Origin: Escherichia phage wV7
Sequence record: NC_019505.1
Strand: one strand, 5' to 3'
DNA length: 64,000 bases
The position numbers and the translations under genes were made by a program. Below the pieces are notes generated by a model. That model searched no databases, was not told the DNA's origin, and was given only the letters and a program-made list of their open reading frames with translations. This document shows positions 15,162 through 63,972 of the stretch, one piece after another. Position 1 is the first letter of the stretch. Each line of letters opens with the position of its first letter.

Positions 15162-15398
15162 TTAACCACCTATTTCTGTAGGCGTAAACATTGCAGCATT
15201 CTTAGTTTTCCAAGTTGCTGCATCGGAAACTACATCAGAATAAGCTGCTTTTTCTGACGGAAAGATTTGATAATGAGAATCTGCAATACGATGCTCGTTA
15301 GAATAGATTTCAAACGGAACAGAAACTTCCATACCTTTAACTTCTTTGCCTTCACCTGCTGGATGAGTAAAGGTCTTGATGTTAACGAAACCACCCAT
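15162..15398 (-). CDS. soc: small outer capsid protein Soc
   Basis: 78 aa; YVNIKTF and HYQIFPSEKAAYS blocks resemble T4 Soc; TATAAATA late promoter upstream. Confidence 0.7.
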   Translation of the reverse strand: MGGFVNIKTFTHPAGEGKEVKGMEVSVPFEIYSNEHRIADSHYQIFPSEKAAYSDVVSDAATWKTKNAAMFTPTEIGG

Positions 15399-15429: not shown

Positions 15430-15437
15430 TATTTATA
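15430..15437 (-). promoter_or_regulatory. late promoter (soc)
   Basis: Exact TATAAATA on minus strand ~30 nt upstream of soc ATG. Confidence 0.65.
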
Positions 15438-16169: not shown

Positions 16170-16370
16170 ATGGTACAAAAATTAATGGCACTTGTTAATG
16201 CCATCAAAGGTAATAAGAAACGTATAGCTTTTACTATTTCTGCTATGGTAGGAATTTTACTCTGGAACTTTATTTTATCACCAATTGCAATTGCACATGG
16301 TGTTAATATTCCAGTAGTTACTCTTGATACATTTGTAGATTTAGCATTTGCTTTAGTTGGGTTAATTTAA
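16170..16370 (+). CDS. small hydrophobic protein on opposite strand (2 predicted TM segments)
   Basis: 66 aa; AAGGAGG Shine-Dalgarno 5 nt before ATG; convergent with gene 61 with overlapping stops. Confidence 0.4.
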   Translation: MVQKLMALVNAIKGNKKRIAFTISAMVGILLWNFILSPIAIAHGVNIPVVTLDTFVDLAFALVGLI

Positions 16371-17395
16371 ATCTTAGCATATTTAGATAACCGCATTTTA
16401 GCCATCAACCCCTGGGCAATATTATTTTTCATATATTCCATAATTTGTTCAGGGGTTGCACCTTCCTTTCTAATCATATCATTAACATCTTTTGATTTCC
16501 AGGGAGATTTATCCCAAAACATAACCCTTTCTCCTGCATCAACTAATTTAGTCATTCGTTTGATAGTGTCAGGGTGACGAGGTTCATTATCTAAAACCCA
16601 CACTCGTCTATCTTTAAATGGAACAATTTCTAGGTCTAATTGACCGCCAGTAATGGCTATACCATTTTCAATAAAAAGTGAATCTATAGGTCCTTCTAGA
16701 ACATATACATCGCCATCTTTAACTCGTTCGACTCCATATATTTTTGTTGCCTCAGGATAAGCTTTAATGGTGATATATTTTTGAGGAGCATCTTTCTTTA
16801 ATGCACGTCCTTGAAAAGACTCAGCTTTTCCATTAGCATTATAAATTGGAATAACAAGACGAGGCTCAGAAATTTCCTTTTTATATGTTCCTGGTGCTAT
16901 GCTATTAACTAATTTAGGCCATTCAGTTGTAAACCAAAGATATTTCCATTTATCCTTTGGAATACAACGAGCTTTTACGTATTTTATAATTGGATGGTCT
17001 TCCGCCAGTTTATCTAATCTAACACATGACGGAAGAGATTTAATTATTTTCTTCTCAGGTTGTTTAGGAAGTTCTTTAGGTTTTTCTACTGGACGACTTT
17101 TACCTTTTTCTTTTCTTATTTCAAAGATATACTCACGATATAAATCAGGTTCAAACTCCTTTAAATATATTCCGATTGGTGCATGATAGTTACAGTTATA
17201 ACAATGAATATTTCCTTCATTATTATCACCATAATACCATCCACGAGCTTTATTCTGGTCGGTTTTTGAATCTCCACAAACAGGGCATCTAAACCGTAAT
17301 TTAAAAGTTGAACTATTATTTACTTGTGTGAATTTAGGTAAATGAGCTAATGCACGGTATGCAAACTCATTATCAATCCAAGGTATTGATGACAT
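16367..17395 (-). CDS. 61: DNA primase gp61
   Basis: 342 aa; zinc ribbon CPVCGDS...CYNC; TOPRIM-like EGPIDSLF. Confidence 0.9.
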   Translation of the reverse strand: MSSIPWIDNEFAYRALAHLPKFTQVNNSSTFKLRFRCPVCGDSKTDQNKARGWYYGDNNEGNIHCYNCNYHAPIGIYLKEFEPDLYREYIFEIRKEKGKSRPVEKPKELPKQPEKKIIKSLPSCVRLDKLAEDHPIIKYVKARCIPKDKWKYLWFTTEWPKLVNSIAPGTYKKEISEPRLVIPIYNANGKAESFQGRALKKDAPQKYITIKAYPEATKIYGVERVKDGDVYVLEGPIDSLFIENGIAITGGQLDLEIVPFKDRRVWVLDNEPRHPDTIKRMTKLVDAGERVMFWDKSPWKSKDVNDMIRKEGATPEQIMEYMKNNIAQGLMAKMRLSKYAKI

Positions 17396-17397
17396 TT

Positions 17398-17562
17398 TTA
17401 CTCTTCTTTTTCTTTAGATTCCTCTTTTTTCTTTTTAGGAATCTGTTCAGGACCTTTATTTACTACAGCGCCTGATGTTGTTCCAGTAGAGATATTTTCA
17501 GGATTACCACCTGAATCTCCAGCGACCATATCTTCTTTGATAAATTCTTTATATGTTTTCAT
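17398..17562 (-). CDS. small lysine/glutamate-rich protein with capsid-targeting-like N-terminus
   Basis: Manual call, 54 aa: MKTYKEFIKEDMVAGDSGG...KKKKEESKEKEE; N-terminus resembles T4 internal-protein CTS MKTYQEFIAE; coordinates approximate. Confidence 0.35.
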   Translation of the reverse strand: MKTYKEFIKEDMVAGDSGGNPENISTGTTSGAVVNKGPEQIPKKKKEESKEKEE

Positions 17563-17608
17563 ATTAACCTCTATTCATAAAAGCATTAAAAATTTGGTCA
17601 TCAATAGA
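17560..17608. repeat. direct repeat copy 1 (~49 bp)
   Basis: Near-identical to 17918..17966; spans stop of upstream gene and last 13 codons of downstream gene. Confidence 0.6.
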
Positions 17609-17920
17609 TGGAATAGCAACCTTTTCGGCATCATTTAGCAAATCATTAATTTCATCAGATAACATAACATATGTGCCTTTATTTCCTGTAATTGTTACTG
17701 CACAATTACGAACGTTTTCTTTATCAAATTTTAGGTTAATATTTTCGTAGTGAAAATCCTTTAATGCCGAATATATCTTTAAAATGAAATTGTCTTTTAC
17801 TACAATAAACCCAACCTCACTATTAAAACATGGTTCATGGAAACTGTAATAAACCTTTTCATCTATAAAATCGTATGAAATTTTTTCCATTTTTAAATAT
17901 GAAAATTCAGAACTATACAT
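17564..17920 (-). CDS. hypothetical protein (61.x cluster)
   Basis: 118 aa; C-terminus SIDDQIFNAFMNRG shared with upstream neighbour. Confidence 0.5.
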   Translation of the reverse strand: MYSSEFSYLKMEKISYDFIDEKVYYSFHEPCFNSEVGFIVVKDNFILKIYSALKDFHYENINLKFDKENVRNCAVTITGNKGTYVMLSDEINDLLNDAEKVAIPSIDDQIFNAFMNRG

Positions 17921-17966
17921 ATTAACCTTTATTCATAAAAGCATTAAAAATTTGATCGTCAATAGA
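17918..17966. repeat. direct repeat copy 2 (~49 bp)
   Basis: ~4 mismatches to copy 1. Confidence 0.6.
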
Positions 17967-18563
17967 AACATTTACTTTAGACTGTTCTTCAAACGGTAAT
18001 TCATATCCACATATTACAATTTTGTGATCGATACCAAAATACACAGAAGCAATATGATTAATATTATTTTCAGTGAAATCTAAATCAACATCAATATCTT
18101 TTTGACTAACGCTCAAAGGATAATTAATACGAATAATTCGATTATCTTTAACAAAGATTCCACCGACATACTCTGTGTTGCGTTTAAAGTTTACACGTTT
18201 CCTAAATGAAAAATATTCAGGTTCTTTATGAGCCCGACTCATAGGACACAATGAGTAGCTAGAATAAGAGATGTCAAATCCTACACCTTCAATATGAGCC
18301 AACGTGTCATGATTAAACCAATTATAATCATATGCCAAATCCATTATATTGTAATATGTGAAAGGCACCGGATTAACATCATGTGTTGTACCTTTAAAAT
18401 CTGCCCAGGCAACGATTTCGTTATCTTTAACAATTACAAAAATTGTGCCAATAAGATATCCACGGTTATTTTCATCAGGCGTTATATTATAACATTGCGC
18501 ATCAGGAAATTTACCGTATTTAAACGGTGGATTTTTGTGCATATAATAAATCATATTATTCAC
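17922..18563 (-). CDS. hypothetical protein (61.x cluster)
   Basis: 213 aa; C-terminus SIDDQIFNAFMNKG. Confidence 0.5.
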   Translation of the reverse strand: MNNMIYYMHKNPPFKYGKFPDAQCYNITPDENNRGYLIGTIFVIVKDNEIVAWADFKGTTHDVNPVPFTYYNIMDLAYDYNWFNHDTLAHIEGVGFDISYSSYSLCPMSRAHKEPEYFSFRKRVNFKRNTEYVGGIFVKDNRIIRINYPLSVSQKDIDVDLDFTENNINHIASVYFGIDHKIVICGYELPFEEQSKVNVSIDDQIFNAFMNKG

Positions 18564-18849
18564 CTGTGATTTCGGTTACGATATTTTTGTTATTAAAGTT
18601 TTTATCGCAATACAGAACATAATTATACTGCATTACACCACCTGATTTAAGCTGTTTTTGTACTTCAACTTTCATATTGGGGCGATCACGCTCAACGATA
18701 TTCATAATATCCGCTTCAATTTGAGTTTCAACTTCAGTCTGATCTGCAGTCATAGACCATTCACACAAGTCTTTATCATATCCTGCCATAGCAGGCTGAG
18801 CAGCACAAGAAGCCAAAGTAAAAATTGTAGCAAAAATAAATTTTTTCAT
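18556..18849 (-). CDS. sp: Spackle-like periplasmic protein
   Basis: 97 aa with signal peptide; size and position between 61 and 41 as T4 sp. Confidence 0.65.
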   Translation of the reverse strand: MKKFIFATIFTLASCAAQPAMAGYDKDLCEWSMTADQTEVETQIEADIMNIVERDRPNMKVEVQKQLKSGGVMQYNYVLYCDKNFNNKNIVTEITGE

Positions 18850-18876
18850 GATAATCTCCTCAGTAGTTTATGTTTA

Positions 18877-18907
18877 TATAGTATCTCAATTTCCAACAAA
18901 AGTAAAC
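18877..18907 (-). promoter_or_regulatory. T4-type early promoter
   Basis: GTTTAC ... TACTAT upstream of sp. Confidence 0.55.
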
Positions 18908-18909
18908 AG

Positions 18910-19221
18910 CTATTTTAAAACTTCTGTGTAATCACATGTTACAAACTGTTTCTCTAGCTTAACGATCTTACGAAAATACCTTTTACACTGACGAATCTGC
19001 CTCTTCGTAGGACGTACAGCAAACTTAATAAATTCCACTCGACCAAATGGAGGACTTTCTTCTGCTGGAATATCTAACACCAATTCCCACGTATCCGCAA
19101 TAAGTGCTTTGAATTGAGTATTTTTCCTGACGTTATACGGAGTAGGTTTAAATAAAACAATATGCATATTATCCTCGGCAATCCACTTCGCACACTTTCT
19201 TGTCATCAATGAAAGCTTCAA
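18910..19221 (-). CDS. hypothetical protein
   Basis: 103-aa ORF downstream of dmd. Confidence 0.45.
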   Translation of the reverse strand: MKLSLMTRKCAKWIAEDNMHIVLFKPTPYNVRKNTQFKALIADTWELVLDIPAEESPPFGRVEFIKFAVRPTKRQIRQCKRYFRKIVKLEKQFVTCDYTEVLK

Positions 19222-19351
19222 CTAATGCTTTATTAACTTCAGCATATTGAGTAGTAGCCCATTGAACGTCATCTTTCATCATTGCGATTTCTTTAGTAAA
19301 CATGCTTTCATTCTTAAACCACCCCATAAAAACTACCTTTACCAATTCCAT
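19169..19351 (-). CDS. dmd: Dmd (discriminator of mRNA degradation)
   Basis: 60 aa MELVKVVFMGWFKNESMF..., near-identical to T4 Dmd as recalled; own early promoter. Confidence 0.7.
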   Translation of the reverse strand: MELVKVVFMGWFKNESMFTKEIAMMKDDVQWATTQYAEVNKALVEAFIDDKKVCEVDCRG

Positions 19352-19380
19352 AACAATCTCCTCATTTAACCAACAAGACT

Positions 19381-19410
19381 ACTATACCATAGTCTTGTCA
19401 GCTTGTAAAC
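19381..19410 (-). promoter_or_regulatory. T4-type early promoter
   Basis: GTTTAC ... TGGTATAGT upstream of dmd. Confidence 0.6.
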
Positions 19411-20837
19411 TAAAATTTTAATTCATTTGCCAAAGCATCTAACTGAGCTCGAGCTGATTCGTTTCTTTGATAGCGATTCTGTTCAGCCTGAATCTGTTGT
19501 GAACCTGCTACTTCACTCACTTCGGTTGGAGTAGAATCTTGTTCAATTTCTACCCATTTTTGATTTCCTTTTTGAACACCCATCAAAAACTTATTCCACT
19601 TATTCTTATCACCATATCGTGATTTGATTTGCTTAATGAGTTGTTGTTCAGCAGCTGCTAGCTCCTCGGTTTCAATGACCGCAAGCATAAAATCAGCTGT
19701 TGCTGGAAGACCAGCAGATTCTGCAATATCGCTCATGTTAACATCGGAAGAGTCCCAAGCTTGTTTACCGACCTGTGCTGCAGTCCAAAGAACAGTTTCG
19801 GTTTCAACAGCCAGAGCACGCAATTCCTCTGCAATAGCTTTAACAGTTGTGTAACTATTTTCTGAATAAACTCGGATGCGACAAGATTTACAAATACCCA
19901 GATAGTCGACAATAATGATTGTTGGAACAAAATTCTTTTTGAGCTTCAATTCATTCAAGAGAGACCTGAATGTATTAGCATCTGCTCCACCAGTAGGGTA
20001 CTGTTTAACGATTAAACGACCAAGAGTAGATTTCTCACGCCATTTTTCCATTTTTCCTTTATACTCAGCGTAAGAAATATGTCCATCATCAATATCGTCA
20101 AGAGAAACATCGAGCATGTTAGCATCAATACGTTTAGCGCAGACTTCTTCTGCCATTTCCATAGAGATATAAAGAACGTTATGACCAAGCTGCAAATAAT
20201 CTGCTGCTAATGAACAAAGTCCTAATGATTTACCAACGTTAACGCCAGCCATTAAAACGTTCAGTGTTCCTGTCTCAGCTCCGCCTTTAGTAATTTTGTT
20301 TAGAATTCTGAGTTTAAATGGAACTTTACGAGCTTTATTCATATAAGATAGCCAGCGTGCTTCGTAGTCATCCATCCAATCATGACCAACGTAGCTATCA
20401 AATGAAATTGATAATGCTTGACGCATGATGTCAGGAATAGCACCAACATCCGGCATTTTCTTATTTCGTTTTTCCGGAGGAAGCTCAGCATTAGTTTGAA
20501 TTTCGATTATTTTAGACGTAGCATTAAACATCGCCCTTTGCTGAACATATTTTTCTGTTTCTTTTACTAACCAGCTGTGGTCTTCCGGAGAATCAGCTAG
20601 TTTTGAAATAAGTGTTTTTACACCAGAATATTCTGTTTCAGTAAATGAACTATTTTCTAATGCAACATTTAACGCATTAATAGATGGAACGCTATGATAC
20701 TCGTTGACATGAGATTTAATTAATTTGAATGTATTTTTAGCTGGACCACTTTCAAAATATTCTGAATCCATATATGGCCAAACTTTTGAAAAATAAGCTT
20801 GATCAAATATGAGATGAGAAAGAATAATTTCTACCAC
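19410..20837 (-). CDS. 41: replicative DNA helicase gp41 (DnaB-like)
   Basis: 475 aa; Walker A GVNVGKS. Confidence 0.9.
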   Translation of the reverse strand: MVEIILSHLIFDQAYFSKVWPYMDSEYFESGPAKNTFKLIKSHVNEYHSVPSINALNVALENSSFTETEYSGVKTLISKLADSPEDHSWLVKETEKYVQQRAMFNATSKIIEIQTNAELPPEKRNKKMPDVGAIPDIMRQALSISFDSYVGHDWMDDYEARWLSYMNKARKVPFKLRILNKITKGGAETGTLNVLMAGVNVGKSLGLCSLAADYLQLGHNVLYISMEMAEEVCAKRIDANMLDVSLDDIDDGHISYAEYKGKMEKWREKSTLGRLIVKQYPTGGADANTFRSLLNELKLKKNFVPTIIIVDYLGICKSCRIRVYSENSYTTVKAIAEELRALAVETETVLWTAAQVGKQAWDSSDVNMSDIAESAGLPATADFMLAVIETEELAAAEQQLIKQIKSRYGDKNKWNKFLMGVQKGNQKWVEIEQDSTPTEVSEVAGSQQIQAEQNRYQRNESARAQLDALANELKF

Positions 20838-62467: not shown

Positions 62468-62941
62468 TTATTTGAACGATTTAACGTACTGAATAGAACC
62501 CTTACTATTCACAAAGGCAATTTTACCATTTTTATTATACATGGTAGCAGTACGCTGATAACCATAGGTTTGTTTACCAGATTGATAACCAACTAATGCA
62601 AAATTATCTTCACCCATTTTATTCTGTTTAGCGCGAATGCGTTCATGACCATGTGCCATAAGAACCTTAGCATCACCAGTTGCAATGGATCGACGAGTTT
62701 TTTCATCTTCAACTGCATTAACAAAGTCGTCAAATGAATCAAATTTAGCATGAGATTTATTATACAATTTTCCATCTACTGCATAATTATATCCCTGTAC
62801 ATCCATCTCAACTTCTGTACCATCATCCAATACAGCAGTAATTTTTTGACCTTTTTTAAATTTCAAAAGATCAGTAAAAGATTCAGCAATAATTTGAGAA
62901 TTAATAGCTGCTTCAGTGATAAATTCTTGATATGTTTTCAT
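62468..62941 (-). CDS. internal protein with capsid targeting sequence
   Basis: 157 aa; N-terminus MKTYQEFITEA matches the T4 internal-protein CTS. Confidence 0.6.
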   Translation of the reverse strand: MKTYQEFITEAAINSQIIAESFTDLLKFKKGQKITAVLDDGTEVEMDVQGYNYAVDGKLYNKSHAKFDSFDDFVNAVEDEKTRRSIATGDAKVLMAHGHERIRAKQNKMGEDNFALVGYQSGKQTYGYQRTATMYNKNGKIAFVNSKGSIQYVKSFK

Positions 62942-62950
62942 GGGTTTCCT

Positions 62951-63426: not shown

Positions 63427-63972
<546 letters not shown>

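Follow-up and report, generated by a model that had tools for sequence, protein, structure and literature searches.

Gene 61.1 of T4-like phages resembles the maturation-site segment of the capsid protein gp23 and, in T-even phages, begins with a leader similar to the capsid targeting sequence

Gene 61.1 of Escherichia phage wV7 (NC_019505.1) encodes a protein of 54 amino acids (aa), gp61.1, within the 64,000-nucleotide stretch of that phage's DNA analyzed here (the window). By homology, the conserved core of gp61.1 is a paralogue, standing on its own, of that part of gp23, the major capsid protein, which spans the end of the propeptide, the cleavage site, the N-fist, and the start of the N-arm. 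To this near-universal, constrained mini-protein, predicted to be disordered and copying the protease-cut and N-fist segment of gp23, the T-even phages add an apparently complete capsid targeting sequence (CTS) as a leader. Gene 61.1 would thus encode a CTS-type protein with a predicted gp21 site that lies outside the internal protein (IP) loci and is built from a copy of the capsid protein N-terminus. This turns an anonymous open reading frame (ORF) into a sharply testable hypothesis of head assembly, namely that gp61.1 mimics the gp23 N-terminus, is bound to the prohead core, and is cut by the prohead protease gp21 after Glu10. We hold this reading tentatively and put its probability at about 40%.

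Identity and annotation of gene 61.1

In the ORF list, the 54-aa frame MKTYKEFIKEDMVAGDSGGNPENISTGTTSGAVVNKGPEQIPKKKKEESKEKEE occupies window positions 17398..17562 on the minus strand, with its ATG at 17562-17560 and its TAA at 17400-17398. The window is a segment of a Tequatrovirus (T4-type) genome and corresponds to bases 18693-82692 of KP869105.1, and positions called 'record' below follow the numbering of KP869105.1. The parts of the gene are as follows, with a slash marking a cleavage position here and throughout.

17398..17562, minus strand: gene 61.1 coding sequence, 54 codons plus TAA (ORF list, public annotation, phrog_1823, purifying selection)
17533..17562, minus strand: codons 1-10, MKTYKEFIKE, leader resembling the CTS (agrees with the canonical CTS at 8/10 residues)
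17533..17541, minus strand: codons 8-10, predicted gp21 site I-K-E/D (aligns with the gp23 LTE/AE cleavage site)
17449..17532, minus strand: codons 11-38, DMVAGDSGGNPENISTGTTSGAVVNKGP, conserved core (BLASTP, PHROG, PDB, and hmmsearch links to gp23)
17401..17436, minus strand: codons 43-54, KKKKEESKEKEE, Lys-rich low-complexity tail (alignments)
17424..17431, minus strand: GAAAAAAG run in the tail, natural frameshift hotspot (one-base deletion test against the T6-type homologue P0002)
17568..17571, minus strand: Shine-Dalgarno GAGG (read from the sequence), 5 nucleotides (nt) before the 61.1 ATG and within the last codons of the upstream ORF

The protein matches the profile phrog_1823 over its full length (E 7e-34; residues 1-54, against a profile of 54 positions) and the profile of its longer relatives, phrog_2086, at C-terminal profile positions 109-154 (E 2.6e-16). 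The 701 bases around the gene are 100% identical to O157 typing phage 7 (KP869105.1) and 99% identical to RB51, AR1, and RB68, and the window gene shares 99-100% nucleotide identity with 61.1 as annotated in RB51, AR1, and typing phage 7. An initial annotation of the window had presented the ORF as unannotated. Its coordinates, frame, and length hold, but the ORF was absent only from the track that this reader had; the public records of RB51, AR1, RB14, JS98, RB49, and T4 carry it as gene 61.1, 'hypothetical protein', as do hundreds of Tequatrovirus records. In T4 the gene lies at 18966-19130 (UniProt P39228, 'conserved hypothetical protein') and has the same length of 54 aa and the same place between 61.2-type genes and the primase gene 61. 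T4 gp61.1 begins MKTFKEFIKE (F4) whereas the window protein begins MKTYKEFIKE (Y4), and there is no other substantive difference between the two. On these matches the ORF is the already catalogued T4-type gene 61.1, a real gene of uncharacterized function. The gene itself is long known, having been listed since the T4 genome annotation, and 61.1 has been counted among a handful of conserved T4-like ORFs without a function (Nolan et al., 2006).

Pfam and NCBIfam searches with the short and long forms of the protein found no known domain, and the short form had no Pfam match even at E <=10. An RNA element in place of the gene was ruled out, as the Rfam search gave no RNA family match around 61.1 (16300-19500) and the same interval held no terminator and no above-chance promoter. 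Our literature searches found no paper on the function of gp61.1, none reporting that it neutralizes a defence system, and none noting its CTS determinants or its paralogy with the gp23 cleavage site and N-fist; automated names alone hint at the paralogy. The HIDEN-SEQ preprint is silent on 61.1 in its main text.

The conserved core is homologous to gp23

The segment that follows the leader had been described in the initial annotation as a Gly/Ser-rich linker. It is instead the most conserved segment of the protein and, to judge from the searches below, homologous to gp23. In alignments the core has the consensus EDMVAGD[SA]GGN..NI[AS][ST]GTT[ST]GAVVNKGPEQ[IL]P, and the family motif E-x-MVAGD-x-GG...I-x-x-G-x-T-x-G...GP, with a Lys-rich tail behind it, is seen as invariant or near-invariant columns.

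By BLASTP, residues 2-38 of gp61.1 align without gaps to residues 57-93 of gp23 from the same phage (16/37 identical, E 1e-8). Taken from the other side, the first 112 residues of gp23 match both phrog_1823 (E 3.5e-10) and phrog_2086 (E 3.6e-8, gp23 39-101), and the profiles stretch the similarity to gp23 residues 37-101. The best match of gp61.1 in the whole PDB is T4 gp23, at residues 59-94. When the whole phage genome was searched in six frames with a gp61.1 profile (hmmsearch), only gp61.1 itself and gp23 (E 1.9e-7) were found; the two IP genes came next, at E 0.2-0.4 and through the leader alone. The motif shared by gp61.1 and gp23 reads F-[IL]-x-E/x-x-[VI]-[AG]-G-D-x-G-x-N-x-x-N-I-x-x-G-x-T-S-G-A-V-x-x-x-G-P. 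Since mature gp23* chains in the PDB start AEIGGD, the gp21 site FLTE/AEIGGD of gp23 falls in register with FIKE/DMVAGD of gp61.1. In nearly all members of the gp61.1 family a hydrophobic-x-Glu triplet stands directly before [DEA]-MVAGD (MLE/D, LFE/D, LCE/A, LTE/D, LNE/D, VTE/M), and this triplet aligns exactly with gp23 LTE/AE. The Gol segment of gp23, which activates Lit, lies just downstream (~residues 93-122), about where the similarity ends; the present reading does not rely on this.

A profile search of 1.84 billion proteins returned only 50 clusters, all of 50-251 aa, which makes the family small and phage-restricted. No full-length capsid protein passed E 1e-3 in that search, given the large database size, so the link to gp23 rests on the pairwise, PHROG, PDB, and genome-level searches.

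The corresponding part of gp23 changes its structure during maturation. Residues 66-105 of gp23* are disordered inside the unexpanded head, where they probably touch the scaffolding core, and after expansion they become the N-arm and a 25-residue N-fist that contacts four subunits and helps to build the Soc binding site (PMC9546572; PMC9958956). The gp23 head-length mutations A66D, A94V, and G97S map to this N-terminal region (PMC9546572), although only A66 lies within the pairwise alignment to gp23 57-93, A94 and G97 being reached by the profile alignments only. An AlphaFold2 model of the gp61.1 short form has a mean predicted local distance difference test (pLDDT) score of 59 and consists of one short helix and coil, so isolated gp61.1 is predicted to be disordered. 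This parallels the homologous part of gp23* inside the unexpanded head.

Unlike gp23, gp61.1 has no HK97-fold body and no match to Pfam Gp23, and it is 54 aa long compared with ~450 aa for the mature capsid protein. By these features gp61.1 is not a capsid protein. Homologues of 54-165 aa are nonetheless named 'major capsid protein' or 'major capsid domain-containing protein', as in KR233165.1 (PEC04), PQ657821.1 (Roth77), and MW233709.1 (UPEC01), and the UniRef names of the homologues P0002, P0023, and P0044 carry the same capsid labels. Such labels arise from the local similarity to the gp23 N-terminus and are misnomers, because the HK97 body and any Pfam match are missing.

To ask how old the duplication may be, one can compare the modules across lineages: in a four-by-four comparison of T4-type, RB49, KP15, and DP45 sequences, gp61.1 and gp23 modules were 38-52% identical in every pairing. 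This uniformity suggests that the duplication predates the radiation of these phages and that both copies have been constant since.

A leader resembling the capsid targeting sequence

We take MKTYQEFIAE to be the canonical CTS, in agreement with MKTYQEFITE at the start of an IP-like gene in the window:

62469..62942, minus strand: IP-like gene, 157 aa, starting MKTYQEFITE/AA (canonical CTS; adjoins denV/e)

Across the complete typing phage 7 genome, 2305 ATG-initiated ORFs with a length of 25 aa or more were scored against the canonical decapeptide. Only three of them scored at least 7/10: two IP-like genes, with 9 and 7 matches, and 61.1, with 8; the next best score was 5. The gene scoring 9 is that at record 81634 (window 62942), which adjoins e/denV, and the gene scoring 7, at record 90191, adjoins the tRNA cluster. 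The resemblance of the 61.1 leader to the CTS is thus, by this count, far beyond chance. Two CTS-type ORFs lie beyond the window, the gene just named at record 90191 and another at record 87131.

According to a review of L. Black's work, experiments on IPIII place the main determinants of targeting at CTS residues 4 and 7, and those of processing at residues 8 and 10 (PMC9026906); a 10-residue CTS is enough for foreign proteins to enter T4 heads (PMC9026906; PMC9958956). All four determinants are kept in gp61.1, as Y4, F7, I8, and E10. The suggestion of the initial annotation that MKTYKEFIKED resembles the CTS is therefore well founded: the match is 8/10, the four determinants are in place, and apart from the IP genes no other ORF of the genome has it.

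At the nucleotide level, the first 30 nt of 61.1 match the IP-like leader (gene at 62469..62942) at 27 of 30 positions. The eight residues that the two leaders share all use the same codon, the minority codons ACA and ATC included, for which P is ~0.02-0.03 under the codon usage of the genome. This identity is suggestive of shared ancestry or of recombination between the 61.1 and IP leaders, and is not proof of either. More broadly, the CTS, the end of the gp23 propeptide, and gp61.1 may all descend from one ancestral core-binding and cleavage element.

Like IPI, IPII, and IPIII, gp61.1 starts with the decapeptide MKTY-x-EFI-x-E. In contrast to the IP genes, 61.1 sits in the 41-61 replication cluster and not in the hypervariable IP loci (e/denV; 57B/tRNA). 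Its cargo also differs, as the leader is followed by a disordered ~44-aa peptide and not by a folded basic protein, and its encapsidation and cleavage are predictions.

Conservation and selection

A tblastn search found 61.1 in 1431 phage records, from phages of Escherichia, Klebsiella, Shigella, Aeromonas, Acinetobacter, Enterobacter, Yersinia, Salmonella, and Vibrio. This is about the same as the number of records (1438) that hold a gp23 at least 60% identical to that of typing phage 7. The remaining 1024 records with gp23 are more distant homologues, including those of cyanophage T4-likes, and no cyanophage host is among those listed for 61.1.

Selection was assessed in a codon alignment of 13 lineages. 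Synonymous differences are saturated, with a proportion of synonymous differences (pS) of 0.5-0.9 against a proportion of nonsynonymous differences (pN) of 0.12-0.3. Where it could be computed, the ratio of nonsynonymous to synonymous rates (dN/dS) is mostly ~0.1-0.25, rising to 0.5 in the most distant pairs, and the length differences among the lineages keep the reading frame intact. Frame conservation and the synonymous pattern, named in the initial annotation as the check on a real coding frame, thus both come out in favor of one. By these measures, the T4-like phages (Straboviridae) have in 61.1 a small gene that is real and under strong constraint.

It could still be argued that gene 23 was once partly duplicated and that the ORF is the dead remnant, or that it is a functionless chance ORF, given that the product is short, disordered, and low-complexity in appearance, that its knock-down gives no phenotype, and that no protein has been detected. 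Yet the frame, the length class, and the core motif are kept from E. coli to Vibrio phages, purifying selection is clear, and the gene has a good Shine-Dalgarno sequence. A chance ORF or pseudogene is ruled out by the conservation and dN/dS, and we give the dead-remnant explanation, effectively refuted by conservation, next to no weight.

Long forms and family history

Distant T4-like phages carry a longer homologue of 146-162 aa, in each case located between genes 41 and 61: KP15 (Klebsiella), DP45 (Acinetobacter), 65.2 (Aeromonas), VH7D/phi-pp2 (Vibrio), and JM10 (E. coli). These long forms belong to phrog_2086 (KVP40/phi-pp2 'gp61.1 conserved hypothetical', KP15_24, 65.2 'T4 GC1491') and share with the short form the C-terminal module, the hydrophobic-x-Glu triplet, and the Lys tail. 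Their N-terminal domain of ~105 aa is predicted by AlphaFold2 to be helical with pLDDT 80-92, and a fold comparison of this domain gave no informative match; the C-terminal module is predicted to be disordered (pLDDT <50). Because the distant phages bear the same module as the C-terminal tail of a ~155-aa protein, the T-even short form is probably a trimmed version of an older protein. Long forms of 155 aa also occur in E. coli T4-like phages (L024 and L025 from IMG/VR, and P0089 of JM10), with a module very close to the short form (...LFEDMVAGDSGGSPQAIASGTTTGAVVNKGPEQIPSKKRKR...). This resemblance suggests that the truncation from long to short took place within fairly close relatives. In three other homologues (P0159, P0173, P0174; 237-251 aa) the module lies in the middle of the protein, at about residues 100-150, and is followed by a C-terminal extension of ~100 aa.

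The Lys-rich tail is found in all short and long forms, and its sequence is not conserved. Deleting one base in the GAAAAAAG run of the window gene gives exactly the 62-aa T6-type protein P0002 (...PKKKKRNLKKKKSKNVINTLD), whose tail runs over the start of gene 61, and the tail remains Lys-rich in both versions.

Wherever its position was followed (the window, RB51, KP15, DP45, 65.2, VH7D, and RB49), the 61.1 family lies between the helicase gene 41 and the primase gene 61 on the same strand. This strict placement in E. coli, Klebsiella, Acinetobacter, Aeromonas, and Vibrio T4-likes, in several cases directly upstream of the primase, could point to a replication accessory that works with gp41 and gp61, for example through binding of the Lys tail to DNA or to an acidic partner, with the likeness to gp23 being a relic. 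Early expression alongside the replication genes and the conserved basic character of the tail would agree with such a role. Set against it, the strongest constraint falls on the gp23-like core, whereas the tail tolerates a frameshift. To our knowledge, T4 replisome biochemistry needs no such protein, which we also count against this explanation. A replication role therefore seems improbable to us.

A proposed role in head assembly

In our preferred reading, gp61.1 would bind the prohead partner of the CTS and of the gp23 N-terminal region, the gp22 scaffolding core, and the gp21 prohead protease would cut it after Glu10. The product would be a peptide of ~44 residues, DMVAGD...KKKK-tail, with a basic tail, and this peptide would either stay with the DNA or the shell or exit with other core fragments. 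Core binding followed by a gp21 cut is the simplest mechanism because a decapeptide is sufficient in the case of IPIII, because gp61.1 keeps its determinants, and because the segment that follows copies the core-facing part of gp23. A cut after Glu10 predicts the semi-tryptic peptide DMVAGDSGGNPENISTGTTSGAVVNK, while uncleaved gp61.1 would have the N-terminus (M)KTYKEFIKEDMVAGD....

Several observations weigh against this reading. In T4, 61.1 RNA is early and the protein was undetected in a time-resolved infection proteome (PMC9697503 Table S2), and the main text of a mass-spectrometry paper on the T4 head does not mention gp61.1 (PMC5694885). Knock-down of T4 61.1 by CRISPRi-ART had no fitness effect (four guides, score -0.84, 'Not Fit'; PMC11879866 supplement), a result that fits an accessory role and gives no positive support. 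A consensus scan found no TATAAATA late promoter in the 41-61 cluster, the nearest one upstream being ~39 kb away, so that gp61.1 would have to persist from early synthesis; being a consensus scan only, this test is compatible with read-through or persistence of the protein. The long forms have no N-terminal CTS. Finally, cognate gp61.1/gp23 pairs show no excess of identity in the four lineages compared, where the gp23 segment is too conserved to inform.

The IP genes differ from 61.1 in this respect as well: a protein of the IP type would be expected to be made at the time of prohead assembly, from a late promoter as well as an early one, and T4 61.1 belongs to the early transcript class. However, early expression does not disqualify a protein from a role in the head, because the same cluster holds an early head-assembly gene, gene 40, whose transcript is early and whose protein is classed as late (PMC9697503 Table S2). 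From shuffled sequences one would expect 10.6 +/- 3.4 TATAAATA sites across the 64-kb window, and there are only three (15430, 56903, and 63948), all on the minus strand; this early-gene region is depleted of the motif. The soc ORF (15162..15398) has the site at 15430 just upstream of it, and that at 63948..63955 is a late promoter upstream of gene e.

The early transcript and the lack of a late promoter speak for a decoy that acts in the cytoplasm. Made before gp23, gp61.1 would occupy a factor that recognizes the gp23 N-terminal region, such as a capsid-sensing defence protein, a protease, or a chaperone or EF-Tu-type partner, and would never enter the head. The CTS-like leader would then be no more than the counterpart, by homology, of the helix that stands before the module in gp23 and the long forms, and in alignments the short-form leader does pair with LKEYYDKG-RMLE or FKQFVEEN-KLKE, the helix preceding the module in longer relatives. 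In T-even phages 61.1 ends a counter-defence run of dmd, 61.4, sp, and 61.2 (AdfA), and it is dispensable on the laboratory host, as conditional anti-defence genes are. But a gene that is near-universal in Straboviridae and under strong purifying selection is unlike an arms-race gene; neither the patchy distribution nor the rapid or diversifying evolution of counter-defence islands is seen in a family with 1431 records, many host genera, and dN/dS of ~0.1-0.25. Its synteny by the primase is fixed even without counter-defence genes, and it is retained where the dmd-61.x island genes are absent. There is also no known partner, and the Gol segment of gp23 would begin about where its similarity to gp61.1 ends. 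We consider an early decoy, the main rival, doubtful, and less probable than core binding and gp21 cleavage.

A different fate within the head can be pictured for the same peptide. Carried in by the CTS/gp23-like leader and freed by gp21, gp61.1 might be an overlooked head component, a free-standing N-fist that docks at places which lack a gp23 N-fist or require one in trans, such as around the gp24 pentamers or the portal vertex, or that alternatively tunes the gp23-scaffold contacts that set head length. The map of the expanded head contains unassigned density under gp24, which its authors attribute to the cleaved propeptide of gp24 or to 'another digested protein of the core' (PMC9546572). 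We regard this extension of the proposal as unlikely.

Neighboring genes and spacing to gene 61

On the minus strand the genes follow one another in the order 41, dmd, 61.4, sp, 61.2, a truncated 61.2 paralogue, 61.1, and 61. Those nearest to 61.1 are:

16367..17395, minus strand: gene 61, DNA primase (phrog_47, E 1e-106; gp61 in RB51)
17564..17920, minus strand: 118-aa truncated paralogue of 61.2/AdfA (Pfam PF23813, E 6.6e-8, C-terminal model positions 129-211 only)
17922..18563, minus strand: gene 61.2 (full-length match to Pfam AdfA, anti-DarT factor A, PF23813, E 9e-138)

The upstream 118-aa ORF ends with a TAA at 17566-17564, leaving a single base (17563) before the 61.1 ATG, and two bases (17397-17396) separate the 61.1 stop from the gene 61 ATG at 17395-17393. 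The spacings of 1 and 2 nt read in the initial annotation are thus exact, and the translational coupling drawn from them is partly upheld: tight spacing is compatible with it, but the adjacency to gene 61 is lost outside the T-evens. Genes 61.1 and 61 are separated by other ORFs in KP15 and RB49, and by gaps of 47-142 nt in DP45, 65.2, and VH7D. Taken to its limit, coupling would make 61.1 a leader whose translation brings ribosomes to a weak gene 61 start, with the peptide itself irrelevant. The short spacings speak for this, as does the T6-type frame, which runs into gene 61, and between dmd and 61 terminator-like sites are absent and promoter-like sites are no more frequent than by chance. 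It is difficult to reconcile with the conserved amino-acid sequence (dN/dS ~0.1-0.25) and with the intervening ORFs and gaps of the other phages. Because the adjacency is not conserved outside the T-evens, coupling does not appear to be the reason for the gene's existence, and we judge a pure coupling leader very improbable. Coupling may well occur in T-evens, yet it cannot explain 61.1.

The full-length AdfA match of 61.2 is what identifies dmd-61.4-sp-61.2, upstream of 61.1, as a counter-defence and exclusion run. The 118-aa ORF and full-length 61.2 share the ending DDQIFNAFMN[RK]G, and in RB51 the 118-aa ORF is labeled 'RB32ORF033c, similar to gp61.2'. In T4, 61.2 is followed directly by 61.1, without the truncated paralogue. 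At the other end of gene 61, a 66-aa hydrophobic ORF on the plus strand (16170..16370) overlaps the 3' end of the gene by 4 nt; it is annotated as RB32ORF030w in RB51 and is annotated in typing phage 7 too.

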